The notes beneath the pieces were generated by a model. That model had not been told where the DNA came from. It worked only from the letters and a program-made list of their open reading frames with translations, and made no database searches. A program made the position numbers and the translations under genes. A DNA stretch of 64,000 nucleotides from Peptococcaceae bacterium 1109. GTDB lineage: Bacteria; Bacillota; Limnochordia; Darwinibacteriales; Darwinibacteriaceae. Below, one piece after another: positions 36,378 through 56,500 of this stretch (the stretch's first letter is position 1; the number at the start of each line of letters is the position of its first letter). The stretch covers positions 13,733-77,732 of the forward strand of contig LDJB01000004.1 of assembly GCA_001028815.1 (NCBI GenBank), in the 5' to 3' direction.

Positions 36378-36710
36378 CTAGTCCTCTACCCATTCCAACC
36401 AGATGCCGTCGTCAAATCCTCCCCGTTCACTTCTCTTCCTGTCCTTGAGTTGCAGGACTTCCTCGAAGGAAGAACCAAGGTGAGCGGCCAAACCATCGAT
36501 TACTTCCAGTATATCCGCGAGCTCTTCTACGTCCCGCTCAGAATCAAGAAACTCTCTCCACTCCTCCAGGAGCTTTGCCTCAAGCCCTGCGATGAGCTGC
36601 TCTCCGCTCACCTGAGAAAAACGGCACTTCTTTCCGTTGGCATTGATGATCTCCGGGATGCGGTCCCGCACTAACTTGTCATATACAGCTATGATAATCC
36701 ACCCTCTCAT
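36378..36710 (-). CDS. HisE/MazG-like all-alpha nucleoside-triphosphate pyrophosphohydrolase
   Basis: 110 aa. YDKLVRDRIPEII...EE..E..DILEVIDGLA matches the PRA-PH/MazG-like NTP-PPase signature. Its start codon overlaps the upstream helicase stop (ATGA). Confidence 0.7.
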   Translation of the reverse strand: MRGWIIIAVYDKLVRDRIPEIINANGKKCRFSQVSGEQLIAGLEAKLLEEWREFLDSERDVEELADILEVIDGLAAHLGSSFEEVLQLKDRKRSERGGFDDGIWLEWVED

Positions 36711-39091
36711 CCTCTTCGTTTGTATAGGCTGGCAACTTTCACCCGTTCGCGATACCTCAGGATATCCTCAATGTGTTGAATAAGCGCAGGCGACTGTCTT
36801 ACCACAACTGTAGGCGCCAGCCGCAGCTGCCTGTTGATCTCATCGTACTGAAAAAACGATGAGCTTCTGTTCAGGAAATGAATGGGGTTGTTCTCAGCCA
36901 AGCGTGTCCATTTCTCCAGCGGCCACTCTGCATAGCCCTTGCTAGATTTATCCTGCATGTCCACTTTGAAACGGGGATCTTGGTAATAACTCTGCATGGC
37001 CTTCCCTATCTCGGTGCTGGACACTGCAGGCCGCAGCCTGCCTTCATGAATAAAGGCCTTGATGGTTGGTATCTTGTAAAGCTTGGTCATGGACGTCTTC
37101 TCAAGGTCAATGAGAAACTCCTCAATATCCGTATCTAGCCAGCTCTCCTCTTCCGTGCTAAGCTCGCCAATATCCGCTAAGAACCGCAGATACCCCTTGA
37201 ACGGACGCAGGTAACTTGGCCTTAGGAACACTCGAGAGGCAATGTCACTCCCGGCATGAATGTCAAGGCGGAGGGGCCTGCGGCCTAAGTCGGCTTTGAT
37301 GCGGAAGTACTCAGCTTTCATCCGTTCAGGCAGCGGATCGTACTTGCGCATCTCCTCAAAGACGTCTAGCAAGCGCATATCAAAGTGCACCATACAGCCC
37401 TCCGCGACAGACTCAGATAGATCGCGGATGCTGTAATAATGATCCCGCTCGTCTTGAGGATTGCGTCCGGTAAGAATCAAGGGTATCCAATGGGCTCTCT
37501 TATAGTTGCCGATGAAGTCTAGGACTGTTACATGTCTTTTGCCTCCACACTTCCTCAAACCCCGCCCCAGCTGCTGCACAAACACTGTATAAGACTCTGT
37601 TGGGCGAAGGAACATGATAAGGTCAACTTCGGGAATATCCACTCCTTCATTAAACTGATCCACCGAGAAGATCACTTCCACTTCCCCAGTGCGCAGGGCC
37701 TTAACGGCTTGTTCTCGGTCCATAACATGCGGGCCTTCTCCGCTGTGTACCGCTACCGCCCTCACCCCATGCTGTCTAAACACGTCCGTCATGAAGTTGG
37801 CATGCCTGATGCCGCTGCAGAACCCCAAGGCCCGCTCTGTTTTGTACTCCTGATAGCACTTCAGAATGAGATCAGCACGGGGTGCGGCAGACAGGGCTCT
37901 TTCTAGCTGTTCACTGACATAGCGGCCGTTAGAAATGTCGATTGTGGAGTAATCGGTCGTATCATCGTAGATCCCGTAGTAGTGAAAGGGCACCAGATAG
38001 TCCTTATTGATTGCCTCCTGAAGGTTGATTTCGTAGACTATATTGTCCTCACAGAACTGATAAATATCCTGATTGTCCATCCGGTACGGCGTGGCGGTTA
38101 ACCCCAGCAAGAAGCGGGGCCTGAAGTAGTCAACTATCCTGCGATAGCTCTGAGCGGCCACGTGGTGAAACTCATCGATGACAATGTAATCAAAGCAATC
38201 AGGCGCAAAATACGATGGCCGCAGGTACCTCTCCTGACCCAACGTTTGCACCGAGGCAAAGACTATATCGGAATCCGTGGCCTTTTCCACGGCATTGAAG
38301 AAGCCCTTAGTCCTTAGTGGCACTACCTTTTCGTAAGTCTCATAGGCTTGACGCAAGATTTCCTCTCGGTGGGCCACAAAAAGGACACGCCGAAACTCTT
38401 GGCTGTCAAATGCCGCCAAGTAGGTTTTGCCTACTCCGGTAGCCATCACAACCATGCCCCGCCGAAAACCCTCTTCCCGAGACCGTTCCAAATAATGGAG
38501 CGCCTCGATCTGCGCCCCCCGTGGAAACACCTCGGCGGCAGGCTCCTGGGGAGTGCTGGAGATTCCCAGCCAGCGAGGCCGCCTCCAAGATAGGCTGTAT
38601 TCTTTGAGCCAGTCGTCATCCACCGGGCGTGCCTGGGTGAACAAAGCATCGAATTGAGTAATGAACTCGTGGTAATCCTCTTGCCTGTACCGCGAAAGGA
38701 GGCGGTAGTTCCATTCTATGCCATCTACCAAACCACTGCGGGACAAGTTTGATGATCCCACGTAGACCTCTCCTGTGGTACCGCCAATGAAAATGTAGGT
38801 CTTGGGATGAAAAGCTATATCCCCAGACTCATATATACGGATATCTGCCTTGTTTTCCAGCTGATCTTTGAGAAGATACAGAGCAGAGGGTTCTGTAACA
38901 TTAAGATAGCGGCCTGTGAGAATCTGCACGGACACCCCGCGCTCCACCGCGCCCTTTAGGTCAGGTAGAAGCAGGCGAACCCCAGATTCGACCACAAAGG
39001 AAACCACCAGTTTGATCTGTTCCGCCCGCCTAATTGACGATTGCAGACTCCTGAGCAAGGAAACCCGATCGTTGGTAATCACGTTACACAC
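36707..39091 (-). CDS. PLD-family (single HKD) nuclease, SF2 DExH helicase and DUF3427 fusion protein
   Basis: 794 aa. HKD motif AFHPKTYIFIGG...VGSSNLSRSGL, Walker A VMATGVGKTYLAAF, motif II DEFHH, motif III GLTATPYR, motif VI QQLGRGLR. The C-terminal ~250 aa are DUF3427-like. Confidence 0.85.
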   Translation of the reverse strand: MCNVITNDRVSLLRSLQSSIRRAEQIKLVVSFVVESGVRLLLPDLKGAVERGVSVQILTGRYLNVTEPSALYLLKDQLENKADIRIYESGDIAFHPKTYIFIGGTTGEVYVGSSNLSRSGLVDGIEWNYRLLSRYRQEDYHEFITQFDALFTQARPVDDDWLKEYSLSWRRPRWLGISSTPQEPAAEVFPRGAQIEALHYLERSREEGFRRGMVVMATGVGKTYLAAFDSQEFRRVLFVAHREEILRQAYETYEKVVPLRTKGFFNAVEKATDSDIVFASVQTLGQERYLRPSYFAPDCFDYIVIDEFHHVAAQSYRRIVDYFRPRFLLGLTATPYRMDNQDIYQFCEDNIVYEINLQEAINKDYLVPFHYYGIYDDTTDYSTIDISNGRYVSEQLERALSAAPRADLILKCYQEYKTERALGFCSGIRHANFMTDVFRQHGVRAVAVHSGEGPHVMDREQAVKALRTGEVEVIFSVDQFNEGVDIPEVDLIMFLRPTESYTVFVQQLGRGLRKCGGKRHVTVLDFIGNYKRAHWIPLILTGRNPQDERDHYYSIRDLSESVAEGCMVHFDMRLLDVFEEMRKYDPLPERMKAEYFRIKADLGRRPLRLDIHAGSDIASRVFLRPSYLRPFKGYLRFLADIGELSTEEESWLDTDIEEFLIDLEKTSMTKLYKIPTIKAFIHEGRLRPAVSSTEIGKAMQSYYQDPRFKVDMQDKSSKGYAEWPLEKWTRLAENNPIHFLNRSSSFFQYDEINRQLRLAPTVVVRQSPALIQHIEDILRYRERVKVASLYKRRG

Positions 39092-42746: not shown

Positions 42747-44603
42747 TTAGACCTTGAACTTACCGCTCAGCTCCTGAAGGGTTTCTGCCATCTGGTTGAG
42801 AGTTTGGGCAACGGCGGCCATCTCATCCATCACCGCAAACTGCTCTTGAGCCGCTGCGCTGATCTCCTGGCTGGTAGTGTTGAGCTGTTCTATGCTGCGG
42901 GAAGCCTGCTCCACCAACCCTGTTACCCGTGACACCGTGGCCACAATGCGGGCAAGTGCTTCCCCACTCTTGCTCACCCGCTGGCTGGTCTCAGCTGTTT
43001 GCTGGGCGCTCTGAGACATACCCATGACCGCTTCATTGGTCTCCTGCTGAATAGACCTGATGAGTTCACTGATTTCCTTCGCAGCCTGGGCCGATTGCTC
43101 CGCGAGCTTCCGCACCTCTTCTGCGACTACAGCAAAGCCCCGCCCTTCATCACCGGCCCGGGCCGCCTCAATTGCGGCGTTCAGTGCCAGAAGGTTAGTC
43201 TGCTCCGCGAGGCCGCTGATTACCTCCACGATCCTGCCGATCTCCTCTGAGCGCTGGGCTAGGATGTGGATAAACTCAGTGAGCCGTCCCATAGTTTCTT
43301 TTAGTTCCTCCGTACCAACCACGGCTTGGCCCACCACTAGATTGCCCTCTTGGGCAGCGCCCACAATGTCGTTTACGGCAGAAGAAATGCTCTCCATGGC
43401 CTGGGCCGCCGCGGAGTAGTCATCAGCCGTCTCGTAGACTTGTCCCATGGACATCCGGGCCTGCACCGTAGAAGAAGCCAGCTGCTGGCTCGCGGAACTC
43501 ATCTCACCGATTGCCGCTGCCAACGATCCTACCATCTCCTTGAGAGATGCGGTCATACCGGTAAAGGCGGAGACCAAGGTTCCCACTTCGTCCCGGCCCC
43601 CCACCGCTGGGAGCTCTCCGGTTAGATCCCCCGCCGCGATTGCATCGGCGGCCTGGGCTACTGTCTGAAGTGGAGCCAAGACCCTGCCCATCAGGTATAA
43701 CAGCAGCGCAATGAATACCCCCGAGCCCACAGCCAAGATGATGATCATCTGTAAGCTTTGCTGAGTGATCATACGCCGGTAGCCCCCAATGTCCTGGTAT
43801 ACCCCCACCACCGCAAGCTCAGCCCCATCGTAGCTTAGCACTGGAAAGAAGATATGGGCCCAGCTGCGGCCGCTTCCCTGGCTTTCCCCAGGCCTTGGGG
43901 TAAGGCCCTTAAGCTCAGGTTCGGACAGGACCCCTGGGGTAAAGGCGAGCAAGGTATACCCCTCTTCACCAGGGACAAACACCGCTAGCTCCACGCCCAC
44001 TGCCTCGTGAATCTCCTGCAGGAGCTGCTCTGTAAAGGGTATATTTGTCTCCACTGTTCCAACCACTACGCCATCAGCTGTGATGGGCGCCCAACCTCGC
44101 ATGCCCATCCCGAAGGGGCCCCGATCATATCCCCAGAGAGGTATCCCTAAGCGGCCCGCGTCCAGAATCCCGCCCCGGTTCTACACGTCGCCATAGACTT
44201 CTGGGTTTTGGCCCCGAACAAGGGACGTATCAAAGGGTGCCCGTACGTGGAGTACGTCCACGCCAAAGGCGGCATGGACCTCTTCGTAGACCTTCACTAC
44301 CGTATCCACTATGGCCGTGCGGTCTCGGTTTGCAGCGCCAGTAGCGATCTCTGGCATTCCCGCGACAGCCATGGCGACACCTAGGGCCTGCTCCGCCTTG
44401 CCTTGGAGCTTGCTGTCTACCACCCGTTGTGCCGCGGCCAGGCTGTCTGCCACCATTGCCCGCAGCAGCCGCTGTTGGTTCGAAAGCATTAACACGCCCA
44501 CCATAGTGACTGCAATGGCTAGGGCGATGACGATTACAGCAAACAACCGAGTCCGCATACTAAGCTTGGCCACAAACTTCACTCCCGCTCCATGGTATTG
44601 CAA
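42747..44603 (-). pseudogene. Methyl-accepting chemotaxis protein with a Cache-like sensor, interrupted by a single in-frame TAG at 44181-44183
   Basis: ORF 44181..44603 (TM plus sensor N-terminus) and ORF 42747..44108 (sensor C-terminus, TM2, HAMP, MCP signalling domain ...[40 protein letters not shown]) are in the same frame. Exactly 24 sense codons follow the TAG: ...[40 protein letters not shown]... Confidence 0.6.
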
Positions 44604-44662: not shown

Positions 44663-47320
44663 TTACTTGTTTTCCTCATTAGTACCTAGCCCTTCTATTT
44701 GCTGGACCGTTTGGGGAGAGAGGATGTCTGTAAGGGATGCCTTTCCTGTACCCTGCCTTCGCATGTACGATTCCTGAGAGAGTTCCAGAGCGCTTTCCAT
44801 GGCTTCCCTGAGCTCCCTGGCGGAGAGCAGCGCACTGCCGGCTCCCCTGATAATCACCTGCTGGAGCCCGTCGGAGGTAGCGACGGTAATGTTGTACTTA
44901 TCTTGATTGTCAAAGGCAAACTTCTCAATGTACTGGTCGGCAGTCTGGGCTGCCTTAGTAAAGACGACATGAATGTTATGGTATGCCTCTAACTCCGCTA
45001 GCTGCCGATCCTTGATGCTATACGCATCAAACACAACAATGATCTTATACGGACTCACCGCCTGATAAGAGCTTAGAGCATCCAGGAGCCGAGTGCGGGC
45101 AATGTCCATATCTTCCTGGGCAAGGCCTTTGAGCTCCGGCCAAGCATGGATCACGTTGTACCCGTCCACTAGCAGATAGTTCTCCCTCGGTGGAAGGGAG
45201 TTTGAGGGGCCCTTGCCGCGCTCTGCTTCTGCCCGGCGCTGCCCTGCCCGTTCTTTCCAGCTTGATTTCCGGCCCAGATTGCCCGTAGTCTGAAGGTAGG
45301 GGTAATCATCGTGGTCGTACTCAAATTGCTCTCTGGCCACCCCTGCCCGCGGCCTCGTAATAGGGCTGGAGCCAGGGGCAGCACGTTGTCCTTCCCTAAA
45401 CTGCGCTTCGATGTGCATGTAGTCTTTCACTTGATCCCAGGGCACGTGAAAACCTGCCCCGCCCGCGCAGAATACCGACCCAGGAGGATTGTCCACATCG
45501 GCTTCTGCATCATAGCCTATGCGCGCAATCACTTCATCTCCATTGTGGCAGGGGAAGTACCCTGCGGAGCTGCAAAACAGCCGCCCTTGGCCCCTAGTAT
45601 AGGCGGCTACTTCCTGAGCGTAGTTCTGCATCGTAGCTACCGGCGCCCGTCCCGTGAGGATTGTCATCTCGCCAGAGGTGCCTGCAATCTCCCAGGTGCC
45701 GTGCGTGCTTTCCAGATCTGTGATGGCCCTGCCCACAACCTTCTCCGGCACTTCCAGCCGGAACTCGTAGTAGGGCTCCAGCAGGACAGATTCTGCTTGC
45801 ATCAACCCCTGGCGAACCGCCCGGTAGGTGGCTTCGCGGAAATCTCCCCCTTGGGTGTGATCTAGGTGGGCCCGTCCTGCCACTAAAGTGATCTTCATAT
45901 CTGTAATGGGGGCCCCGGTGAGGACGCCCTTATGCGCCTTTTCCGCCAAGTGGGTGAGGATTAGCCGCTGCCAGTTTTTCGCAAGGAAGTCTTCACTGCA
46001 GTCAGCAGCAAACTCCAATCCGCTCCCCCGGGGAGCAGGCTCTAGGAGAAGGTGGACCTCCGCATAGTGCCCTAAGGGTTCGAAATGGCCAATCCCTTCA
46101 ACAGTGCTCGCAATGGTCTCTTTGTAGAGAATGCGCCCTGCGTCAAAGGATACATTCACGCCAAAGCGCTCTGAGATGAGCCTCTGGAGGATTTCAATCT
46201 GCACTTCCCCCATGATCTGCACCTGAATCTCCTGGAGCTGTTCATCCCACACAACGCTCAGCTCTGGTGCTTCCTCTTCCAGCTCCTTTAGTTTCGGCAG
46301 CATCACCCGGGGTTCCAATTCTTCTGGCAGCACGACCCGGTAGGACAACACGGGCTCCAGGACCGGGACCATTAGGCCGCGCTCCCCCCCGATCCCCTGT
46401 CCCGGCCGAGTTTGGGTGAGGCCTGTCACCGCGCAGACCGTTCCCGCACTGACTTCCCCCACTGCTTCATACTTCTGTCCAGAATAGATCCGGATCTGAT
46501 TGACTTTCTCTTTCCAGCCTTCACCAGTGATTTCATCCCTGACCTTCAAAACGCCCCCAGTCACTTTCAGGTGGGTAAGGCGGCTTCCCTGCTCGTCCCG
46601 GGAGATTTTGAAGACCTTTGCCCCAAATTCCTGGGGATAACTGGGGATGACAGCATAGCGCGCAAGTCCCCGCATGAACTCTTCCACCCCATCTAAGTGG
46701 AGTGCTGACCCGAAGTAGCAGGGGAACACTTTCCGCTCCCTTACCGCCTCTTTGATTTCTTCCTGGGAAAGCTGTTTTGCAGCAAGGTAGGACTCAAATA
46801 GGCCCTCATCACACAGGGCAACCCGCTCAAAAAAAGCTGCCCCCTCTCCGCCACCAAACTCCGTGCACCGGCTGTCGAGCCTTTCCTGAAGTTCCTCAAG
46901 GAGTGCTGCCTTATCGGTCCCTGGTTGATCCATCTTGTTCACGAAGATGAATACCGGGACTTTGTATACGTCTAAAAGGCGCCATAGGGTGCTTGTGTGC
47001 CCCTGCACTCCATCAGCGCCGCTGATCACCAAGATGGCGTAATCCAAAACCTGCAGGGTGCGCTCCATCTCTGTGGAAAAATCCACGTGGCCCGGGGTAT
47101 CTAAAAGTGTGATCTGCAAATCGCCCAAGGCAAAAACGGCTTGCTTGGAAAATATGGTGATGCCCCGTTCCTTTTCCAGGTCATGGGTGTCTAGAAAAGC
47201 TGTCCTTTTATCTACCCGGCCCAGCCTCTGGATTCTGCCCGCCAAGTACAGCATGCCCTCTGAGAGAGTGGTCTTTCCCGCATCCACGTGGGCAAGGATG
47301 CCGACAACTAGTTTCTTCAT
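44663..47320 (-). CDS. Translational GTPase of the EF-G/Tet(M)-like ribosomal-protection-type family fused to a C-terminal Rae1/YacP-type NYN ribonuclease domain
   Basis: 885 aa. G1 AHVDAGKTTL, G3 DTPGH, G4 NKMD, then EF-G-like domains II-V to about aa 640 and a basic linker. The NYN domain is YLLVDGYNVIHAWPELKGLAQ...YKIIVVFDAY...HNIHVVFTKAAQTADQYIEKFA...ITVATSDGLQQVIIRGAGSALLSARELREAM, which closely resembles B. subtilis YacP/Rae1. Confidence 0.85.
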   Translation of the reverse strand: MKKLVVGILAHVDAGKTTLSEGMLYLAGRIQRLGRVDKRTAFLDTHDLEKERGITIFSKQAVFALGDLQITLLDTPGHVDFSTEMERTLQVLDYAILVISGADGVQGHTSTLWRLLDVYKVPVFIFVNKMDQPGTDKAALLEELQERLDSRCTEFGGGEGAAFFERVALCDEGLFESYLAAKQLSQEEIKEAVRERKVFPCYFGSALHLDGVEEFMRGLARYAVIPSYPQEFGAKVFKISRDEQGSRLTHLKVTGGVLKVRDEITGEGWKEKVNQIRIYSGQKYEAVGEVSAGTVCAVTGLTQTRPGQGIGGERGLMVPVLEPVLSYRVVLPEELEPRVMLPKLKELEEEAPELSVVWDEQLQEIQVQIMGEVQIEILQRLISERFGVNVSFDAGRILYKETIASTVEGIGHFEPLGHYAEVHLLLEPAPRGSGLEFAADCSEDFLAKNWQRLILTHLAEKAHKGVLTGAPITDMKITLVAGRAHLDHTQGGDFREATYRAVRQGLMQAESVLLEPYYEFRLEVPEKVVGRAITDLESTHGTWEIAGTSGEMTILTGRAPVATMQNYAQEVAAYTRGQGRLFCSSAGYFPCHNGDEVIARIGYDAEADVDNPPGSVFCAGGAGFHVPWDQVKDYMHIEAQFREGQRAAPGSSPITRPRAGVAREQFEYDHDDYPYLQTTGNLGRKSSWKERAGQRRAEAERGKGPSNSLPPRENYLLVDGYNVIHAWPELKGLAQEDMDIARTRLLDALSSYQAVSPYKIIVVFDAYSIKDRQLAELEAYHNIHVVFTKAAQTADQYIEKFAFDNQDKYNITVATSDGLQQVIIRGAGSALLSARELREAMESALELSQESYMRRQGTGKASLTDILSPQTVQQIEGLGTNEENK

Positions 47321-47473
47321 GATCTTCCAATCCCATCCAAAGCGAGCTTCAGCTGCTGCCTGTTCTCCTATTTATTGACTTATTCGCTTGCCCCTATCCC
47401 ATTACCTCCAGGAAAATCCCAGGCACAATAAAGAGCGGCCCTCAAAGAGCCGCCCATCCATAGGGGAAATCAC

Positions 47474-48682
47474 TTAGTAGATGGTTTTCTGCAGTTCAGC
47501 GTATTCCTCAAACAAGGTAAGGCACTGTTCTCTCCCGTACTCGGAGATCGCTAGGACAGAGGTGTCCTGCTGCCCCCCTTCAATGAAGCGGTAGATGAAG
47601 GCATCCCGGAAACCGATCTCCTCCGCATCTTCCGGCCTGCAGCCGTACACTACTTGCTTCACATTGGCCCAGATAATCGCGGAAAGACACATTGGACAAG
47701 GGTAGGCGGTGGTGTAGATCCAACAGCCAGTGAGGTCGTGGGTGCCTAAGATCTGCCCTGCTAAGCGGATGGCATTGATCTCCGCATGAGCGGTGGGATC
47801 GTGATCCCGCAGCACGCTGTTGGAAGCGACGCACACAATGTTGCCTTCTCCATCAATCACCGCGGCACCGAAAGGCCCTCCAATATCCTGCCGCATGGTC
47901 GTCCTCGCCTGTTCAATAGCCCTGGCCATGGCTTCATCCATAGCGGTACCTCCGTGCTTTGCTCCAATGTCTACGGGGAAGTCAAAATACGTATCAGGGT
48001 ACGGTTCACCCACCAGGCTGTAGTGCCACCATTCCTCAGGATAGGGAGCAAAGCCTGCGGCCACCATAGCATCTCGGAGGATGCTGCGGTTGGCGGCTTG
48101 CTCAGGGGTGATGAGGTCTGTTCCGTGGTGGGAAATCTCACCGAAGAAATCAAAACCGCTGCCCATATCTACTTCTTCCCCAGTGTCCTTGTACACCAGT
48201 GTTAAGTCCACCACGCTACCCCGGGTGTGTCCAGATTTCTCCGCAATGTAACCAAGCTCAAAGAGCCGGGACTTGTCCACCTGAGGATAGAAGATCCCTT
48301 TCATCTTCTGGTCCTCCAAGTCTGCGGCCCAGCGCACAAAATGGTCCACGGCCCGCTGTGGCCGGTAAGCATCGAAAACCTTGATGTAGTACCCCTGCTC
48401 ATCTAAGATATCCGCAGCGACTTTCAACGCCGCGGCAGCTTCTTCAGTGAGGATGGCAACGGGAGCCTCGTAACCATCGACAGGCGCTCCTACGAAGTTA
48501 TTGTCCCCGTAATACCTGATCTCAAGTTGGGCAGTTTCCACCACATCCGTGACATACACGAAACCTTCAGGAAGAGTGAATGCCGAAGCTTGAGCAGTAA
48601 CGCAGGCCAACACCAACAGTACCCAAAGGACGCCAGCTTTTCTCTTGAACATCTCTCTGCACCTCCTTGAAACGTAAGCCAT
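47474..48682 (-). CDS. Secreted fusion of a VanX-like D-Ala-D-Ala dipeptidase (M15D) and a CDA-fold nucleoside/nucleotide deaminase (TadA/GuaD-like)
   Basis: Signal peptide MFKRKAGVLWVLLVLACVTAQASA. VanX motifs SGHTRGSVVD and EEWWHY. The deaminase carries HAEINAI ... PCPMC zinc ligands. Confidence 0.8.
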   Translation of the reverse strand: MAYVSRRCREMFKRKAGVLWVLLVLACVTAQASAFTLPEGFVYVTDVVETAQLEIRYYGDNNFVGAPVDGYEAPVAILTEEAAAALKVAADILDEQGYYIKVFDAYRPQRAVDHFVRWAADLEDQKMKGIFYPQVDKSRLFELGYIAEKSGHTRGSVVDLTLVYKDTGEEVDMGSGFDFFGEISHHGTDLITPEQAANRSILRDAMVAAGFAPYPEEWWHYSLVGEPYPDTYFDFPVDIGAKHGGTAMDEAMARAIEQARTTMRQDIGGPFGAAVIDGEGNIVCVASNSVLRDHDPTAHAEINAIRLAGQILGTHDLTGCWIYTTAYPCPMCLSAIIWANVKQVVYGCRPEDAEEIGFRDAFIYRFIEGGQQDTSVLAISEYGREQCLTLFEEYAELQKTIY

Positions 48683-48702: not shown

Positions 48703-49437
48703 TTAGCTCTCTGGCTCTAAGAGGTAGATGGAGCGCTTTCCAATCTTAAAACCTTCCAGCCGCTTGAACCCCTGAGCCTGCACCTTCTGCTGCTTGGTCG
48801 TGACCAGGGCAACCACTCCTTGGTCCCGTACAGCCGGGCGCAGATTGCTGAGCATAACCCCAATAGGATCAGTGATGTCCTGTGACCAGCTGGCGATACT
48901 TCCGTAAGGTACATCTGTAATGACGATGTCTATGGACTGAGGCGCAATCTTCCCAGCTAGGCCAGGCCGCAAGACATCTATCTCCATGCAGTGGATCTCA
49001 AGGTGAGCGGTGTGCTCCACCAGCTCCCCAAGGCGGGAAGCGCTGGCCAAAGCTTCCCTGTGAGAGTCCTTGCCGTAGAGTGCGAAGAGCTCCTCAAGCT
49101 CTGCGATGCGCCTTGCCATCCCTGCGGGGGTTAGCAGTGCAAGGTTAGCCTTGGCCAGCTCCAGAATCTCCCCGTCCACATCGGAAGCGTAAAGCTTAGA
49201 AAACTCTCTGCCGTGGAGCAGGGCTATGGTAGTCAACAAGTACGCACCCCCGCAGCAGGGATCGTAGATGGTCAGGGGAACCTTTCCCCGGGCCTTGCGG
49301 ACGCGCTCAAGGCATCGCTGGATAATCTCGCTCCCCAAGCGCACCGGGAATGCGGTTGCCCCTTTACGGTTGTACAAAACCCTGCCGCTGGCAAAATCCT
49401 CGTAGTTCTTGGCCTCAATTTCAAACCTGTACTTCAT
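48703..49437 (-). CDS. Class I SAM-dependent N-methyltransferase (DPPY-type amino-methyltransferase, RNA or DNA)
   Basis: SAM motif I IYDPCCGGAY and motif IV ITDVPYG. The preferred start is MKYRFEIEAK at 49437. The ORF extends to 49503 if the upstream ATG is used. Confidence 0.65.
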   Translation of the reverse strand: MKYRFEIEAKNYEDFASGRVLYNRKGATAFPVRLGSEIIQRCLERVRKARGKVPLTIYDPCCGGAYLLTTIALLHGREFSKLYASDVDGEILELAKANLALLTPAGMARRIAELEELFALYGKDSHREALASASRLGELVEHTAHLEIHCMEIDVLRPGLAGKIAPQSIDIVITDVPYGSIASWSQDITDPIGVMLSNLRPAVRDQGVVALVTTKQQKVQAQGFKRLEGFKIGKRSIYLLEPES

Positions 49438-49609
49438 GAGCTTGCCCTGTTCCACCCTTCCCACACTAGTGGTGACTTCCTGTTTCGTAACACCAGCGGG
49501 CAATATCCCCGATGAGCTCTAGGGGGAGGGGCCTATCGTAGGGAAACTGCACTGCACCGCTTGAGCTCCCTGCCGCAATCTGGGCACTGCCACACAGCCT
49601 GCCCCTCCT

Positions 49610-50053
49610 CTACCCTTGCTGCTCTGCCCGTTCTTCCCAGAGTTTAACCCTTTCCTCAAAGCTCACAACCTTGTGCACCTGGTGCACCATCCAATGGTAC
49701 CCAAAGGGATCGAAAAAGGACGCGTGGGACACGCCATACTCTGGCATCTCCGTGATAGGCTGCACTTCGAGGCAGCCTGCATCCATGGCTTTGGCAAAGG
49801 TCTCTTTGATATCTGGTACGAGGACATTGAACCACACAGATCGGATGCCCTCTTCCCCCGGCGCCATGAGCTGAAACTCAGGGTTTTCATCTAGGAGGTG
49901 AAAACGCACTCCATAGATGGAGAAAACCGCTTCGTTCTGCCCTTGGGGGAAATCGGTTACCTCAATCCGTTCCACCTCAAAAATCTTCTCGTAAAGTGCC
50001 AATGCCGCCAAACTGTCCTTCACAACCATATCAATTTCTACTCCGACCATCAA
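49610..50053 (-). CDS. VOC-family protein (glyoxalase/bleomycin-resistance fold)
   Basis: 147 aa with a two-betaalphabetabetabeta-module pattern (...VFSIYGVRFHLLDEN...HASFFDPFGYHWMV). Confidence 0.75.
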   Translation of the reverse strand: MMVGVEIDMVVKDSLAALALYEKIFEVERIEVTDFPQGQNEAVFSIYGVRFHLLDENPEFQLMAPGEEGIRSVWFNVLVPDIKETFAKAMDAGCLEVQPITEMPEYGVSHASFFDPFGYHWMVHQVHKVVSFEERVKLWEERAEQQG

Positions 50054-50226
50054 CTCGGCCTCCTCACGTGCCAGGCGGCACCTTTTTTGATATAACTTCG
50101 ACCACCATACCGTGACTCCTTGCAGTCCTTCCGTTTCGCGGAAAACTCTCCCTTGACATACATAGAAGTCCTAGGTATACTGTTGGTAATACATAGCACT
50201 TCTAGGTATCTGCCAAGGAGGTTCAC

Positions 50227-50583
50227 ATGGATGTCTCGAAGGACCTGATCGCTGCCTCGGCCACTCCGCTTATCCTGGCGATCCTGCAGTACGCAGACAG
50301 CTACGGCTACGAGATCATTAAGAAGATCAGAAGCGCATCGGACAACGAGTTGGTTTGGACCGAAGGAATGCTGTATCCTGTGCTCCACCGCTTAGAGAAA
50401 AATGGGTTTATCCAGTCGTACTGGAAGGAGTCCCCAGAGGGGCGCCGCAGGAAGTACTACAGGTTGCTGCCTGAAGGCAAGGGGGAGCTGGAGCGGCACA
50501 GGCAGCAGTGGGAACTGGTGTACTCTGTATTATCTGCCGCCATCCACGGCACTATTAAGGAAGGGTCGGATTCCTATGTTTGA
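50227..50583 (+). CDS. PadR-family transcriptional regulator
   Basis: LILAILQYADSYGYEIIKKIRSASDNELVWTEGMLYPVLHRLEKNGFIQSYW...RRKYYRLLPEGK is the canonical PadR winged HTH. Confidence 0.9.
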   Translation: MDVSKDLIAASATPLILAILQYADSYGYEIIKKIRSASDNELVWTEGMLYPVLHRLEKNGFIQSYWKESPEGRRRKYYRLLPEGKGELERHRQQWELVYSVLSAAIHGTIKEGSDSYV

Positions 50584-51916
50584 TTTGGAACAAAACATTA
50601 AATCCTGGTGTGATTACTTCCGCGCCCGGGGCTCCTTAACAGAGGAGGATATCTTGGAGATCGAACACCACCTCCGAGACCAAATCGCTGACCTTGTGGA
50701 GAGCGGCCTCAGTGAAGAGGAAGCTTTTATCATCAGCGTGAAGCGCCTCGGTAACGTCAGTACAATCTCCGAGGAGTTCTCCAAAGTCAATACGGAGAGC
50801 CTCTGGAAGCACCTTCTCTTTGACCCAGACCCAGCGGCTAAGGCCCAAACGCAGAAGCAAGTCTTTCGCGTGATCGTCCTGGCATTGCTCGCGGGAACCG
50901 CCGCTAAGCTCCCAACCCTCTTTGGGGTGGAACTGGGCTCTATCGCCTACTTCAAAAACCTCAGCTTCTACATTCTCCCCTTCATTGCTTTCTGGCTCGC
51001 CAAGAAGAATGAGGTCTCAACGAGGTTGCAGTGGATCATGGGCGGAGTTTTTGCTGCGGCACTGCTTGTCATTAATCTTTACCCAGCCTACGGGCCCAGG
51101 CATACTGAAACGCTCACCGCGATACACTTGCCCATCTTGATGTGGCTGGTGACCGGCATTGCCTACATGGGAGAGGACTGGCAGTCCAGCAAAGCCAGGA
51201 TGGACTTTTTGCGGTTCACTGGGGAAAGTGTCATCTACGGCAGCCTGCTTATGCTGGGGCTCATGGTCCTGACCATGTTTACGGTGATGATTTTCCAATC
51301 CATCGCCATTGATATGGAGTGGTTCGTTGAGAACTACCTCTTGGTCTACGGAGGCTGTGCAGTGGCCGTGCTTACGGTCTACCTTGTGGAAGCCAAAAAG
51401 AGCATTGTGGAGAACTTCGCCCCCGTGTTGGCAAAGATCTTCAGCCCGTTGTTCTGTGTCACGCTCACCGCTTTCCTGGTAGTGATGCTAGCGACGGGCC
51501 GCAGCCCCTTCGCGGAGCGGGAGTTCCTCATCGGATTCGACCTAATGCTTGTCCTAGTACTGGGGCTAGTTCTGTACACCATTTCCGCACGGAACCAGTA
51601 CGATGACCCTTCCACCTTCGACTATCTCAACACTGCGCTAATCGCCGCTGCCATCATCGTGGATGCGGCAGCGCTCTGGGCCATAGCAGGCAGGCTTTCA
51701 GAATTTGGCATTACTCCCAACAAGCTCGCGGCCCTAGGTGAAAATGTACTCTTGCTGGTTAACCTCACGGCCCTCTTGGTGCTTTACATCCGCTACTTCA
51801 TGCAGAAAATTGAGTTTAAGCGGATTGAGATGTGGCAGACCAAGTACCTCACGGTCTATGCAGTGTGGCTAGGGATTGTGGCCTTTGTGTTCCCCATCGT
51901 ATTCCAGTTTCAATAA
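50576..51916 (+). CDS. PadR-associated membrane protein with a DUF1700-like N-terminal domain and a polytopic C-terminal domain
   Basis: Its start ATG overlaps the PadR stop (ATGTTTGA). The N-terminal MFDLEQNIKSWCDYFRARGSLTEEDILEIEHHLRDQIADLVESGLSEEEAFIISVKRLG is typical of the sensor module downstream of PadR genes. About 10 TM segments follow. The longer ORF from 50402 lies in the PadR overlap and is unlikely. Confidence 0.7.
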   Translation: MFDLEQNIKSWCDYFRARGSLTEEDILEIEHHLRDQIADLVESGLSEEEAFIISVKRLGNVSTISEEFSKVNTESLWKHLLFDPDPAAKAQTQKQVFRVIVLALLAGTAAKLPTLFGVELGSIAYFKNLSFYILPFIAFWLAKKNEVSTRLQWIMGGVFAAALLVINLYPAYGPRHTETLTAIHLPILMWLVTGIAYMGEDWQSSKARMDFLRFTGESVIYGSLLMLGLMVLTMFTVMIFQSIAIDMEWFVENYLLVYGGCAVAVLTVYLVEAKKSIVENFAPVLAKIFSPLFCVTLTAFLVVMLATGRSPFAEREFLIGFDLMLVLVLGLVLYTISARNQYDDPSTFDYLNTALIAAAIIVDAAALWAIAGRLSEFGITPNKLAALGENVLLLVNLTALLVLYIRYFMQKIEFKRIEMWQTKYLTVYAVWLGIVAFVFPIVFQFQ

Positions 51917-52147: not shown

Positions 52148-55100
52148 TCAGCTTTGGCCTTGATCTTTATCCGTGGTAACGCCCCACTCCGCGGCTTTCA
52201 CCACCGCTTGCGTCCGGCTTTGCACGCCTAGTTTCTTAAAGATCTTGTTAGTGTGCCACTTGACCGTCCCTTCAGAGAGGTACAGCTGCTTCCCAATCTC
52301 CCGGTTCGAAAGCCCCTGAACCATCAAGTCAAAGATGCGGCGCTCCTGATTGGTCAAGCTCTCCAACTCAGGGGCGGATACGGCACCTTCTTCTCGCTCC
52401 ACTTGGGCAGAACTGAGTGCCAAGGCCCCTAGCTTCTGCACGATGTCCATGCGCTCGCCGGAAAAGGCACCGGGCGTTAGGTTGTTCTCTAAGTACAAGA
52501 CTCCCCCCAGTTCATCGTCTAAGTAGATAGGGAGGCACTGGATTGATAGGGGTTTCTTTGTGAGGATGTAGGTGTCTTGGCCAAACACTGTGCTGTCTAG
52601 AGCATTGTCAACCAGCACCGGTTCCCCTGCGTTGATCACGTAGGATACTACCGCCTTGGAGACCAGCTCACTTAAGGCCCGCTCTGGATCAGTCACAAAG
52701 CCCACGGAACCGTTGGCTTCCCGAAAGGCCAACGCCTGCAGGGCTTTGCTCGTGCTGTCCAAGGCAAATAAATAAACCCGCTGTGCACCAGAACTGGCCA
52801 CAATCACCTCAAAAAGCTGCTTGATAGCCGCTTCGCTGTCATCGGAGGCCAAGAAGCTGTCGAGCACCTTGCTCACGGTCAGGATATCAGCCATGCGGGA
52901 TACCTCTGCAGGCAAGGACTGGCCATTTATTTCAGGACGGGCGCCCCGAACCTGGGCCCCTTGCCCATCATCAGATTGGGAGGCGCTCTTCACTGCCGGG
53001 CTCTCTTCCAACAGACGGGCCTTCGCGCTGGCGCCAAACCTAGCATAAAGGGATTGGGCTTTCTTCTGGTATGTCTCCCGGTAGTGCTCCATGCCCATTG
53101 CTTCGTAGTGCCTGGCGGCCAGCTCACTAGCGACGGCTGCATCCAAGACATAGCCGTGTTTTTCTGCTGAACTGATTGCTTCTTGGTAAAGCTTGATCCG
53201 CCGCCAGTGGTCTGAGCGTCTGTATGGCAGTTCCGCCAGAGCCAGCTTATATTTGTGGAAGAAGTTCACCGGGCACCAGCGGGCCCACTTCCGGAGCTGC
53301 TTGACATACCTGTTCAAGGCTTTGGCCACCTTCCGCTGCTCCTTCGAATCAAGGCGGTCGTAAACTGCTGCAGAAGCAAGGCATGCCCAGAAGATGTGTG
53401 CCGCATAGAGGATTTTGCCCCTGAGCGCCTCCAGCTTGTCGCTGATCTCCTTCACGGCCCCGTACGCCTCTAAGTAATCTCCCCGCAGATAGCTCACTTG
53501 AATCTTCATCAAGTAATGGTAGGGGACGATCATAGCAGAGTCTGTGTGGAGCATGCGCTGGACCACACTTTCCGGAATGGTGTACTCCTCCAGCTCCCCC
53601 CTCAGGCTCTTTATATAGACATTCACCGCTTCATGAATGTCCACCAATAACAGCATGCCGTACTTTGTTGTTTCCCCCAAGGCCATCTCATTTACTGCCG
53701 CGAGTTCGTCCAATGATTCCCCTAAGGCGTGGTGAACCTGCACGAGTTCGGTGACCGCGGCACCTGCAAATAGAGTGTCGCCGTGCTCGTAAGCTGCCGC
53801 GTAGACCTGCCTAGCATAGTCTAGGCTTGTGCGTAGATGCTTGTGCCAGAAGTTGAGAAACGCGCTGACAACATAATAGGTCCTGTACCTGATGCTAGGG
53901 CTGCTCGTTTCCGCAAGCTCAAGTGCAATGTCTTGGAGCCTGCGGACTTTAGGCAAGTTCAACCCCAATCCATATGCCACAATAGGATAACACGCAAAAG
54001 CAAAGGCGGAGGCATCACACCGGCCGTACTTCAAGGTCAGGTAGTTCATCTTCAAAACAACGTACACAAACAGCTCGGGGTTAACTAAACTCGTGGGAGG
54101 CACCAAGCTTGCCAGCAGCTCCATTGTCCTCTGGGCCCATGGATCCTCCATTTCTGGTTGGTGCAGGAGGGCTTTGAATGGCCTGGTTAAGAAAAGCAGG
54201 GTTACCCCAAGGAACACCCAGGCAATGTTCCACGGCTTGGGGCGAACGGGGAGCTTCAGCCCGTGGTACATAAGGCCTGTAATCCCCGCTTTAATCGCTT
54301 CGTCGTCTGTGTGATACCCGGTGCAAAGAATTGTCTTGAGCTCATAGACACCTATCAGTTCCTGCCCCGGCTGCGCGTGGCTCACTATCTCGTGGAAAAT
54401 CGGCTCGGCGCTAGCGAAGCCGTTGAGCACGAACGTGCAGTAATAGTAACTGGTGAAAATGTCATAACTCAGTTGGTGGGCTTTGTGCCAATGATCAGAT
54501 GGCAGAAGTTTCACCGCGAAGGCCAAGTAGCGCAGGGCAGCCTGAAAGGCGATTACCGCCTTAGCCCGATTGGCCGCCTCCAAATTAAGGTGGGCAAGTT
54601 CTAGCTGTTCAGCCTCTGTAGCAATTAACTCCGCACTTTCGTTTAGATGGTCAACTGCCTCAAAAAGCAAACTGGATGCGTCCCCCGTTGCGGCTTCCAA
54701 AAACCTTCTTCCCGCTCGCTGGTGGATCTTTTTCCGTTCCAAAGGGCCGAGAAGGGCATAAGCAGTTTCCCTGATGCGGGCATGAAGGAAAGCAAAGGCA
54801 GAGCCATCTCCAGAGTCCTCATCGCTCTCCACAGCAATTGCGGCCTCTACAGCGGGCTGAAGCAAATGCCGAATGTGCCCTGGAGGCTGGCCCAGAATTG
54901 CCCCAAGGCCCTCCAGGGAAAAGGGCTGTTTCAAGCATGCGGCAATCTTCAACAGCTCCACCGTTTCCAAGGGCAGCCGCTTGATGCGCTCCTTGACTAG
55001 GTCAACCACATCTTGGGGCAAAGCCATCTCCTTGAGGCCTTCTCCCCGGTACTGCCAGCAATGCCCTTTAGGGGAAAATGTGAGAAGGCCGTCCTCGTTG

Positions 55101-56500
55101 AGCTTCTGCAGGATCTGCTTCACGTGGAAAGGGTTGCCTGCAGACTTCTGATACACGTCCTCCAACAGCGGCTCCAGCCCACCATCTTCTAGGTGCACCA
55201 AGCTGCGGATCAGTTGGGCGGTCTGGGGCTTCGCAAGCACATCCAACTCCATGGTGCTGATGGAGATGTCCCCCCGGGCCTTCGCCTCACCCACCCAGGC
55301 CAGGAAGGGATGAGAGCTGTCCATTTCATTGCAGCGGTACGCACCAATAAACAGCAGGCGGCTCTCAACGGCATTGTCCAGCAGGGAACAGATCATCTGG
55401 CATGAAGCTGCGTCAATCCACTGCAGGTTATCTAGGAACACCACCAGCGGGGCTGGCCCGCCCAAGGCCACGTGTAGAAACTCAGAGAACGCGCGGCGAA
55501 ACCGCTGTTCCGCTTCGCGCACAGATTCATAGGCTGCAGTCTCAAACTCCCCTGCCACCAGCTCCAGTTCAGGTATGAGCTCGCCGATCCTAGCCCCGTC
55601 CTTTCCCAGCACCTTTCGAAACCTATCCCGCCACAGGGCCAACTGCCCTGGATCCCCCGCAAGGATTTGGCGGATCCTCTCCCGCAAGATCTGCACCAAA
55701 GGTGCATAGGGCGCGCTGGTGCGGTACTGGTCAACATCGCCCCGGACGAAATCCACTTTCGCTGCTGCATCGGTCCGCCGAAAGGCTTCCACCAGGGCAG
55801 TCTTGCCCGTGCCTGGGAAGCCTGCAACCAGGGCGATCTCTGTCCTCCCTGTGCAGACTCTGTGAAAAGCCTCTGTGAGTCTCGCGAGTTCTCCATCCCG
55901 TCCCACCAATGGGCCCCCGCGGCCTATGCCCCGGAGGCTATCTGCTTGTCCCAGGTCAAAGTATGCCACACTTCCCGTGCTCAGCCACTCGTCCCGGCAG
56001 CGCTCCAAGTCCACTTGGAGGCTGAACGCGCTTTGGTAGCGCTCCGCTGGGTTTTTGGCCAGGAGCTTAAGGACGATTTCCCCGATCACCTGCGGAATGT
56101 CCGGGTCCAGGTCCGCAGGGGATTTCGGCTGGAGGGACGTGTGAGCGTAACTCCAGCCCAAGGCGTCTTTAGCCTCAAAGGGCAGCTCCCCGGTGAGCAG
56201 TTCGTAGAAAACAACTCCCACTGAGTAGAGGTCACTTCTGGCATCTGCTGCTGCTTTGAGCCTGCCTGTCTGTTCCGGAGACATGTAGGGCAGGCACAGT
56301 TCCAAATCACTGGGTGGATCGCCCAGCTCAACCTGTTCCGTGTGAAGGTCAACAGAGATGCACTGGGGCAGCAGCCTCTCTAGCACCACGCCAGCGGCAT
56401 GCTGGCCCGCGAGGAACTTGCACAGGGCCACGCTGGCGTCAAAAAACTGCCCCAGCCCGGCCTTTGGCTCCTGTATAAGTTCAGCCAAGAGTGTCTTCAT
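52148..56500 (-). CDS. Large STAND-type LuxR-family regulator: degenerate partial protein-kinase-like N-terminus, AAA/NB-ARC ATPase, TPR-like helical region, GAF domain and C-terminal LuxR HTH
   Basis: 1450 aa. The kinase C-lobe remnants SPEQ and DLYSVGVVFYELLTG are present, but the HRD catalytic loop is replaced by LERLLPQC and there is no N-lobe. Walker A VAGFPGTGKT. The C-terminal HTH is LTNQERRIFDLMVQGLSNREIGKQLYLSEGTVKWHTNKIFKKLGV. Confidence 0.85.
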   Translation of the reverse strand: MKTLLAELIQEPKAGLGQFFDASVALCKFLAGQHAAGVVLERLLPQCISVDLHTEQVELGDPPSDLELCLPYMSPEQTGRLKAAADARSDLYSVGVVFYELLTGELPFEAKDALGWSYAHTSLQPKSPADLDPDIPQVIGEIVLKLLAKNPAERYQSAFSLQVDLERCRDEWLSTGSVAYFDLGQADSLRGIGRGGPLVGRDGELARLTEAFHRVCTGRTEIALVAGFPGTGKTALVEAFRRTDAAAKVDFVRGDVDQYRTSAPYAPLVQILRERIRQILAGDPGQLALWRDRFRKVLGKDGARIGELIPELELVAGEFETAAYESVREAEQRFRRAFSEFLHVALGGPAPLVVFLDNLQWIDAASCQMICSLLDNAVESRLLFIGAYRCNEMDSSHPFLAWVGEAKARGDISISTMELDVLAKPQTAQLIRSLVHLEDGGLEPLLEDVYQKSAGNPFHVKQILQKLNEDGLLTFSPKGHCWQYRGEGLKEMALPQDVVDLVKERIKRLPLETVELLKIAACLKQPFSLEGLGAILGQPPGHIRHLLQPAVEAAIAVESDEDSGDGSAFAFLHARIRETAYALLGPLERKKIHQRAGRRFLEAATGDASSLLFEAVDHLNESAELIATEAEQLELAHLNLEAANRAKAVIAFQAALRYLAFAVKLLPSDHWHKAHQLSYDIFTSYYYCTFVLNGFASAEPIFHEIVSHAQPGQELIGVYELKTILCTGYHTDDEAIKAGITGLMYHGLKLPVRPKPWNIAWVFLGVTLLFLTRPFKALLHQPEMEDPWAQRTMELLASLVPPTSLVNPELFVYVVLKMNYLTLKYGRCDASAFAFACYPIVAYGLGLNLPKVRRLQDIALELAETSSPSIRYRTYYVVSAFLNFWHKHLRTSLDYARQVYAAAYEHGDTLFAGAAVTELVQVHHALGESLDELAAVNEMALGETTKYGMLLLVDIHEAVNVYIKSLRGELEEYTIPESVVQRMLHTDSAMIVPYHYLMKIQVSYLRGDYLEAYGAVKEISDKLEALRGKILYAAHIFWACLASAAVYDRLDSKEQRKVAKALNRYVKQLRKWARWCPVNFFHKYKLALAELPYRRSDHWRRIKLYQEAISSAEKHGYVLDAAVASELAARHYEAMGMEHYRETYQKKAQSLYARFGASAKARLLEESPAVKSASQSDDGQGAQVRGARPEINGQSLPAEVSRMADILTVSKVLDSFLASDDSEAAIKQLFEVIVASSGAQRVYLFALDSTSKALQALAFREANGSVGFVTDPERALSELVSKAVVSYVINAGEPVLVDNALDSTVFGQDTYILTKKPLSIQCLPIYLDDELGGVLYLENNLTPGAFSGERMDIVQKLGALALSSAQVEREEGAVSAPELESLTNQERRIFDLMVQGLSNREIGKQLYLSEGTVKWHTNKIFKKLGVQSRTQAVVKAAEWGVTTDKDQGQS

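Follow-up and report, generated by a model that had tools for sequence, protein, structure and literature searches.

Fusions of a translational GTPase of the tetracycline-resistance (Tet) type with a Rae1/YacP-like NYN nuclease domain have been reported twice: Tet proteins of ten Clostridiales species were found to carry a YacP-like NYN domain, for which a novel resistance mechanism was speculated (Atkinson 2015, BMC Genomics, PMC4342817), and TetM-NYN_YacP fusions were described in Clostridia (Matelska et al. 2017, NAR, PMC5499597). Here, we analyzed a gene of this kind in a 64,000-nt stretch of Peptococcaceae bacterium 1109 (assembly GCA_001028815.1, contig LDJB01000004.1, positions 13,733 to 77,732; hereafter the window), whose 885 amino acid product is a member of this TetM-like/NYN_YacP fusion family of Clostridia/Bacillota. 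It shares with the published fusions the architecture, the domain order, and the taxonomic group, and no architectural difference was seen. An earlier reading of the same DNA made without database searches (the sequence-only reading) had not recognized the architecture as a described one; this novelty claim fails, since the fusion was published in 2015 and 2017, is common in Clostridia, and is widespread in databases under generic names. Coordinates given below are positions in the window, and relatives are labelled P (proteins) or L (loci).

Factors of the EF-G/Tet family bind in their GTP form to the factor site of the ribosome, where domain IV reaches the A site of the 30S subunit and its tip enters the decoding site, and their release requires GTP hydrolysis. 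Cleavage by Rae1 in the A site is said to have been proposed in 2017. Rae1 of Bacillus subtilis is an experimentally characterized translation-dependent mRNA endonuclease (PMC12407103), and a 2026 preprint describes Rae1-dependent tmRNA tagging after ribosome collisions, which ties Rae1 to trans-translation (PMC13622287). According to the same preprint, Rae1 binds ribosomes only transiently, for which reason no structure of ribosome-bound Rae1 exists. In 2025-2026 Rae1 was reassigned from an A-site nuclease to a cutter at the tail of stalled or collided ribosomes that feeds trans-translation, and the A-site cleavage assumed by the sequence-only reading is outdated (Deves et al.; PMC13622287). 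Since this revision the fusion family has become more interesting, as a tractable target and not as a new kind of system.

One reading frame encodes both modules

Direct reading of 44663..47320 on the minus strand gave an open reading frame (ORF) with an ATG start, 885 codons, and zero internal stops. Six Pfam domains were identified in the product, each exceeding its gathering cutoff. The layout, including two regions delimited by conservation and by an AlphaFold2 (AF2) model with its predicted local distance difference test (pLDDT) scores, is as follows:

44663..47320 (-): trGTPase-NYN fusion ORF, 885 amino acids, stop codon included; single ORF with six Pfam domains
46655..47308 (-): G domain, residues 5-222, with a short Tet-like G' region (GTP_EFTU PF00009, E 2.6e-49)
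46412..46627 (-): domain II, residues 232-303 (EF-G_D2 PF22042, 31.7 bits vs. cutoff 27)
46145..46357 (-): domain III, residues 322-392 (EFG_III PF14492, 28.6 bits vs. cutoff 27)
45794..46138 (-): domain IV, residues 395-509, with a family-specific tip (EFG_IV PF03764, E 9.7e-18)
45545..45787 (-): domain V, residues 512-592 (EFG_C PF00679, E 3.6e-17)
45392..45544 (-): C-terminal extension of the GTPase module, residues 593-643 (conserved in relatives; AF2 fold)
45185..45391 (-): flexible tether, residues 644-712 (AF2 pLDDT 25-43, low conservation)
44693..45184 (-): predicted Rae1/YacP-type NYN endoribonuclease domain, residues 713-876 (NYN_YacP PF05991)

The possibility that a Tet-like GTPase gene and an adjacent yacP were merged by a sequencing or assembly error is negligible. 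No point in its support was found, and the frame is uninterrupted in the window. On 24 contigs of independent assemblies, a single gene call covers a protein with ~99.8% identity; within the segment compared (395-735), two residues distinguish the near-identical P0001 from the translated window sequence. Moreover, the junction between domain IV and the NYN domain is unbroken in 80 of the 80 best species-level genomes, complete genomes among them, and both halves, with the same six domains, are found in all 120 top homologs (62-100% identity). Because the protein is one gene on these 24 contigs and its junction is continuous in all 80 genomes, an overlooked stop or frameshift separating two genes is excluded as the source of the fusion. 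The single-product fusion proposed by the sequence-only reading therefore stands, and hidden Markov model (HMM) searches also bore out its domain architecture and boundaries.

The GTPase module carries a private domain IV tip

As judged from their sequence, the N-terminal 640 residues make up a complete EF-G/Tet-type translational GTPase that is predicted to be catalytically competent. The motifs on which the sequence-only reading had based the same assignment are intact, including G1 (AHVDAGKT; K16/T17), G2 (RGIT; T55), G3 (DTPGH; D74/H78), and G4 (NKMD; N128/K129/D131). All that defines this superfamily is present, namely G1-G5 with the catalytic His of DTPGH, and domains II-V. Conservation was assessed in 80 full-length members that are 39-57% identical to the query: K16, T55, D74, N128, K129, and D131 are conserved in 80/80, H78 in 79/80, and the listed G residues in 79-80 of 80.

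The best sequence match in the PDB was TetO (259.8 bits, E 4.6e-76), which aligned in one stretch covering residues 1-591, while T. thermophilus EF-G (254.5 bits) aligned in two stretches with a gap at G'. A Foldseek search with the AF2 model matched the EF-G fold (E ~1e-48, ~680 columns). Among NCBIfam models, tet_protect was the best match, yet its 420.7 bits lie below the cutoff of 775; scores were also below cutoff for TetM/W/O/S (279.1 vs. 1100), Otr(A) (303.5 vs. 900), Tet(Q) (267.4 vs. 1425), and the EF-G models TIGR00484 (295.8 vs. 659.4) and PRK12740 (331 vs. 583). Since all curated NCBIfam models fail, the protein belongs to a separate EF-G/Tet-like subfamily and, as the pairwise scores with EF-G and TetO are nearly equal, the family is not nested among the ribosomal protection proteins (RPPs) by that measure. 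It resembles Tet(M)/Tet(O) in its five-domain EF-G-like body, the Tet-like G' region, and the presence of a C-terminal extension after domain V. With EF-G it shares the domain order, the GTPase motifs, the fold, and the length of the domain IV loop III, in which a His stands at a similar place; unlike EF-G, it has a shorter G', a loop I without GGxGQ[YF]G, the additional C-terminal extension, the tether, and the NYN domain.

The tip of domain IV sets the family apart. Loop I reads GHFEPLGHYAEV, with the pattern G411-H412-F-E414-P415..H418-Y419, and loop III reads GRAHLDHTQGGDFR (H485, H488, D493), compared with GLYYSPVSTPADFR in TetO and GSYHEVDSSAMAFK in EF-G, so that the length is equal and the residues differ. 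The tip residues G411, H412, E414, P415, H418, Y419, H488, and D493 are all conserved in 80/80 members.

These comparisons bear on the proposal that the fusion is an intrinsic antibiotic ribosome-protection factor, in which the Tet-like module would displace drugs from the A site, be it tetracycline or others, with an RNase step contributed by the NYN domain (Atkinson 2015). The tet_protect and TetO matches, the latter in a single stretch with a Tet-like G' region, argue for it, as does the fact that Rae1 itself reacts to antibiotic-induced stalling. However, the scores are far under all curated RPP cutoffs, EF-G scores about as well as TetO, and the functional loop III tip YSPVS, which includes Pro509, is replaced by HLDHT, with loop I differing too. 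The loop III residues Ser508-Pro509-Val510 of Tet(M) reach the tetracycline site, with an overlap between Pro509 and the place of the drug. Residue changes are nevertheless tolerable if the loop conformation is kept, and S508A/P509A/V510A Tet(M) stays active (PMC4750697); given that the loop length is also kept in the fusion, the loop change makes a drug-displacing ability less probable rather than impossible. Drug displacement also leaves the invariant nuclease active site unexplained. RPP genes spread mainly by transposons, plasmids, and other horizontally transferred elements, whereas the fusion is chromosomal and was not found on mobilizable elements. Its family-specific, His-rich loops I and III and its nuclease domain further distinguish it from Tet(M)/Tet(O). 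With NCBIfam scores, loop III tip, and mode of spread all unlike those of RPPs, we consider a resistance function improbable.

The C-terminal extension (residues 593-643) follows the pattern PCHN..EV....YD.E.D..NP.GS.F..G...V.W..VK.YMH and is conserved in two sets of close relatives (n = 121 and n = 67); in divergent members, W628 is retained in 76/80 and P612 in 65/80. In the AF2 model it consists of two short strands flanked by one helix on either side (pLDDT ~66-72). A zinc or other metal site built from invariant Cys and His residues was also considered and dropped, because conservation of C441, C591, and H592 does not extend to divergent members.

The NYN domain retains the Rae1 active site

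The C-terminal 170 residues are predicted to form a complete Rae1/YacP NYN nuclease with a full acidic active site. That this region is NYN-like was confirmed by the NYN_YacP model PF05991, which matched residues 716-876 (E 1.6e-45, 155.6 bits vs. cutoff 24.6) over profile positions 1-162 of 166; the domain is complete, C-terminal helices included. The Asp-containing motifs quoted in the sequence-only reading are all present, namely LLVDGYNVIHAW (716-727), VVFDAY (762-767), and VATSDG (813-818). The C-terminal 185 residues match the sequence of the B. subtilis Rae1/YacP crystal structures (5MQ8/5MQ9) with E 4.5e-24, and the two proteins share the NYN_YacP fold, with 43% identity over 129 amino acids. 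The catalytic residues D7/D53/D81/D104 of Rae1 (counted manually on the alignment) correspond to D719/D765/D795/D817 of the fusion, and these four, together with the GYN motif (G720-Y721-N722), are conserved in 80/80 members. Four conserved Asp and a GYN following the first Asp define the NYN_YacP active site (Matelska 2017, PMC5499597), and the fusion protein has all of them. Since the GTPase and NYN residues are both essentially invariant in divergent members, the two activities would have been retained together; as far as the residues tell, both catalytic centers are intact, as the sequence-only reading had held.

Unlike Rae1, which is a standalone protein of ~170-180 amino acids encoded in a gltX-cysS-mrnC-rlmB-yacP-sigH context, the NYN domain analyzed here is the C-terminus of an 885 amino acid GTPase whose gene has no conserved neighbors. 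The standalone Rae1 of C. difficile lies in the canonical context gltX-cysS-mrnC-thyX-rlmB-yacP-sigH-tuf; the fusion, with neither a single domain nor this context, is not a standalone Rae1 ortholog.

A disordered tether joins the two modules

Residues ~644-710 are disordered in the AF2 model, which has a mean pLDDT of 70 and a predicted TM-score (pTM) of 0.45 as a whole. The sequence-only reading had called this linker basic, which holds for its C-terminal half (nine K+R vs. four D+E) and not for the tether overall (14 K+R vs. 11 D+E). The query tether instead consists of an acidic N-terminal part, a degenerate copy of a family motif (DDYPYLQTTGNLGRKSSW), and a basic C-terminal part. Its length varies between 65 and 194 amino acids across the family (median 95; ~70 residues in the query), and the motif [DE]E[IVL][DE]xI[FL]xxT[FY][GY] is found in at least 45 of 80 members, followed by a tail with a median net charge of +6 that runs into the nuclease domain. 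The equivalent tether in P0121-P0270 members, though otherwise variable, keeps this motif, which lies between the acidic and basic segments and in close relatives reads ...EIDxIxNxTxYANQGKKSxWKRRK. It may serve to anchor the tether to the ribosome or to RNA, or act as an autoinhibitory peptide.

The fusion family is large and probably often misnamed

To determine the size of the family, an exhaustive HMMER search was performed with residues 594-885, and 295 clusters at 50% identity matched (E<=1e-30). Among the best 150 of these, 82 correspond to proteins of at least 780 amino acids with the match at the C-terminus, and most others are gene fragments; short NYN-only proteins, considered as close standalone relatives, turned out to be fragments of fusion genes. 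A species-level scan (one genome per species) gave at least 577 confirmed relatives among at least 600 stretches, and the best 80, which were retained, are all fusions, with 52-64% conservation across Clostridia families. Their carriers include Desulfitobacteriaceae, Clostridiaceae, Oscillospiraceae, Peptostreptococcaceae, Anaerovorax, Fusibacter, Lachnospiraceae (Roseburia, Blautia, Dorea, Anaerostipes, Mediterraneibacter, Enterocloster, Hungatella), and others; cultured carriers include Acetivibrio thermocellus, Ruminiclostridium cellulolyticum, Lachnoclostridium phytofermentans, and Pseudoclostridium thermosuccinogenes. The family is thus far larger than the ten species of 2015. Our analysis further adds to prior reports that both predicted active sites and the private domain IV tip are invariant and that the layout of the tether is conserved, while the gene context is not.

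In databases, members appear as "small GTP-binding protein," "translation factor GTPase family protein," "NYN domain-containing protein," or under names of the TetM/TetW/TetO/TetS type. P0086, P0095, P0097, P0098, P0120, P0428, P0439, and P0451 are named "TetO" or TetM/TetW/TetO/TetS tetracycline resistance protein. Because the curated RPP cutoffs failed (279 vs. 1100 bits in a scan that covered the window member of the family), the label [quoted passage not shown] is probably wrong for family members, and such likely over-annotation can inflate resistome counts. In expression data of C. thermocellum (PMC3478167), "small GTP-binding protein" labels several genes, none of which could be assigned to the fusion gene.

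A possible role in translation quality control

We tentatively favor the reading that the fusion is a chromosomal, housekeeping-type translation quality-control factor, in which an mRNA endonuclease of the Rae1 type would bring along the GTPase that docks it on the ribosome. Invariant within the family, the tip of domain IV resembles neither that of EF-G nor that of Tet proteins; this speaks for a separate way of reading the ribosome and against a role in translocation or drug displacement. In addition, the gene is chromosomal, slow-evolving, widespread in Clostridia, and without a fixed partner, as is typical of a self-contained housekeeping factor. The tether, disordered in the model and variable in length, nonetheless keeps its acidic-motif-basic layout, a further point for this reading. 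By analogy with Rae1, the fusion would presumably act on translating or stalled ribosomes, and a docking module in the same polypeptide could plausibly have evolved to make up for the transient ribosome binding of Rae1. The general idea of a ribosome-targeted RNase, put forward in the sequence-only reading, is a reasonable one.

In such a mechanism, the invariant, family-specific tip of domain IV would select the ribosome state, either stalled with an accessible A site or unable to translocate. The docked GTPase would keep the tethered NYN domain at high local concentration by the 30S mRNA path, and the nuclease would cut mRNA outside the A site, on the entry side, on the exit side, or between collided ribosomes. 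The cut may then yield a truncated message for trans-translation, as proposed for standalone Rae1, and GTP hydrolysis may set a time window such that only long-lived stalls are cut. Delivery of the nuclease to the decoding center itself, as envisaged in the sequence-only reading, is unlikely because domain IV would occupy the A site and because the model places the NYN domain on a flexible tether of ~70 disordered residues, not rigidly at the domain IV tip.

A more specific version of this quality-control reading is possible, although we hold it with less assurance: the protein may be a one-polypeptide bacterial no-go-decay machine, whose His-rich tip senses ribosomes that do not proceed (because the A site is empty or obstructed, or because they trail in a collision), licenses cutting by the tethered Rae1 domain until GTP is hydrolyzed, and feeds trans-translation. 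Known collision and no-go-decay systems recruit an endonuclease to stalled or collided ribosomes, with an A-site-probing module delivered by a translational GTPase. The likeness to SmrB (E. coli), Cue2/NONU-1 (eukaryotes), and Dom34/Pelota-Hbs1 would be one of functional analogy only: the SMR and NYN folds are unrelated, and nuclease and GTPase are separate in those systems, whereas they form one polypeptide here. If true, the fusion would be a natural "trapped" form of the Rae1 pathway, lockable on ribosomes with GDPNP, and could offer the first view of how a Rae1-type nuclease engages the ribosome. By analogy with Tet proteins, its GTPase partner should be freezable on ribosomes with non-hydrolyzable GTP, and carriers include genetically tractable Clostridia (A. 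thermocellus, R. cellulolyticum, L. phytofermentans) and abundant human gut Lachnospiraceae.

Several points weigh against a self-docking quality-control nuclease. The cut mapped for Rae1 falls on the side where mRNA leaves the stalled ribosome, a long way from the site at which factors bind; judged by analogy, a tether of ~70 residues may have to reach the exit side of the same ribosome or might rather serve a neighboring ribosome or the mRNA entry side. Structural predictions (AF2 and Foldseek) confirmed the EF-G-like body and the disordered tether and left the placement of the NYN domain undefined (pTM 0.45). No functional study of any fusion-family member was found in the literature searched, and no linkage to ssrA or smpB was seen in fusion-gene neighborhoods. 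As for co-occurrence with standalone Rae1, a search with C. difficile Rae1 was dominated by Peptostreptococcaceae, and a search with the fusion of a Peptostreptococcaceae metagenome-assembled genome shared no species with that list. A second NYN copy was found neither in the window nor in 88 loci, all of them too short to be informative. Finally, the substrate is suggested by homology to Rae1 alone and could be rRNA or tRNA.

This last point leads to an alternative in which the NYN domain, with the GTPase docked at the factor site, would cut 16S/23S rRNA or ribosome-bound tRNA and serve ribosome maturation, inactivation, or turnover, for instance during starvation or sporulation in the mostly spore-forming Clostridia. 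NYN_YacP was first tied by gene context (mrnC, rlmB) to rRNA/tRNA processing, docking at the factor site would leave a tethered nuclease equally near rRNA and mRNA, and the basic tether tail offers a potential contact to rRNA. One gut Clostridia contig (MT835514.1) has the fusion gene between an RsmH-type 16S rRNA methyltransferase gene and gltX; this context is a single case, however, and linkage to ribosome-biogenesis genes is not conserved over 74 loci. The only activity defined for the closest characterized homolog is translation-dependent mRNA cleavage, and we regard an rRNA or tRNA substrate as unlikely, while giving it more weight than the resistance function discussed above.

Genomic context of the fusion gene

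Upstream of the fusion gene in the window are genes for a PadR regulator, a glyoxalase/bleomycin-resistance-type protein, an AviRa-like rRNA methyltransferase, and a VanX-like peptidase-deaminase, and a chemoreceptor gene lies downstream; the same neighborhood is present in four assemblies of the window's lineage (L001-L004). These resistance-like neighbors would fit an antibiotic-protection factor, but 74 other loci lack them, as do A. thermocellus, Desulfosporosinus, and Ca. Darwinibacter, in which the fusion gene has unrelated neighbors. GC content is even across the window. One further feature lies just upstream of the gene:

47433..47455 (-): terminator-like hairpin, 10-bp stem and T-rich tail, between the VanX-deaminase and fusion genes (consensus scan, direct reading)

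This hairpin suggests that the fusion gene may form its own transcription unit; the evidence is weak because such sites in the region are no more numerous than expected from shuffling.

We also surveyed 74 loci for a conserved partner, clustering four neighbors on each side from crude ORF calls. No neighbor family was found in more than 11 of the 74 loci, and none at a fixed position; the top families (hybrid histidine kinase in 11 loci, ABC exporter in 7, MATE pump in 7, GreA in 4, methyl-accepting chemotaxis protein (MCP) in 3) are all generic, and a conserved operon or partner was rejected. The co-expression with helix-turn-helix (HTH) genes hinted at by Matelska 2017 is likewise not general, as the 77 close same-strand immediate neighbors are heterogeneous. 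No Rfam regulatory RNA was found in the window, nor upstream of the gene in eight diverse loci.

The context also bears on whether the fusion is a toxin or abortive-infection effector that stops translation upon phage attack, as the sequence-only reading had entertained. A ribosome-targeted nuclease might be toxic in principle, the authors of the Rae1 preprint speculate on invader mRNA (PMC13622287), and defence-like genes are present in the window, e.g., a Type IV restriction-like PLD-helicase 5.6 kb away. However, the fusion protein has no PADLOC defence-model match, no conserved antitoxin, immunity, or sensor neighbor was seen, and no defence-island enrichment was apparent in the genomic data examined. 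Nor was genuine phage or mobilizable-plasmid carriage found: the only "plasmid" matches are two non-mobilizable replicons of 252 kb and 518 kb, and the two "phage" matches are unannotated human faecal-virome scaffolds labelled "UNVERIFIED: Bacteriophage sp." (MT835514.1 and MT835563.1), of which the one examined, MT835514.1 (L008, 1..37795), is bacterial chromosome that encodes AddAB, FeoB, CspB protease, RsmH, GltX, and glycerol kinase. The 52-64% conservation across Clostridia families fits vertical housekeeping inheritance. With no defence model, partner, island, or mobile location, a defence-system identity was rejected, and we consider a toxin or abortive-infection role very improbable. 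The gltX gene next to the fusion in MT835514.1 is also the one with which the classical yacP operon of Bacillus begins.

Other features of the neighborhood

The chemoreceptor gene downstream of the fusion (42747..44603, minus strand) is split in the window into a 140 amino acid ORF (44181..44603) without a Pfam match and a 453 amino acid ORF (42747..44108) with HAMP and MCPsignal domains. Four other assemblies of the lineage have it as an undivided gene for 608-611 amino acids with dCache_3, HAMP, and MCPsignal domains, and there is probably in the window a frameshift or stop around 44108-44181, reflecting a pseudogene or a sequence error.

On the upstream side, 47474..48682 (minus strand) encodes a 402 amino acid protein with a signal-peptide-like N-terminus, in which a VanX-type D-Ala-D-Ala dipeptidase (Peptidase_M15, E 1.4e-46) and a deaminase domain of the cytidine/dCMP type (E 5e-23) are fused, an unusual pairing; in assembly L001 the deaminase part alone was called. 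Beyond it, 48703..50388 (minus strand) holds a resistance-like cluster with an AviRa-type 23S rRNA methyltransferase homolog (267.9 bits), the glyoxalase/bleomycin-resistance-family protein, and the PadR-type regulator. The cluster is lineage-specific, being present in L001-L004 and absent from the loci of other genera. Divergent from the PadR gene is a 504 amino acid ORF without Pfam or PADLOC match (50402..51916, plus strand), which has 446 amino acids in related assemblies.

Two more distant genes resemble regulatory or defence components. The first (52148..56500, minus strand) encodes a 1450 amino acid regulator with a partial protein-kinase domain, an AAA_16 (STAND-type) ATPase, TPR-like repeats, a GAF domain, and a LuxR/GerE HTH, the kinase part of which matches PADLOC PD-T4-6 models (E 8.5e-26). 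The second (36707..39091, minus strand) encodes the PLD-nuclease and ResIII/helicase protein, which matches PADLOC models of Type IV methyl-directed restriction enzymes with 338.8 bits; in L002, this place ~5.6 kb from the fusion gene is taken by a NERD and protein-kinase gene, indicating a variable defence spot. In the Ca. Darwinibacter locus (L007), a c-di-GMP-I riboswitch (15215..15299, plus strand; 70.9 bits) lies upstream of a FapA-domain gene and is unrelated to the fusion.

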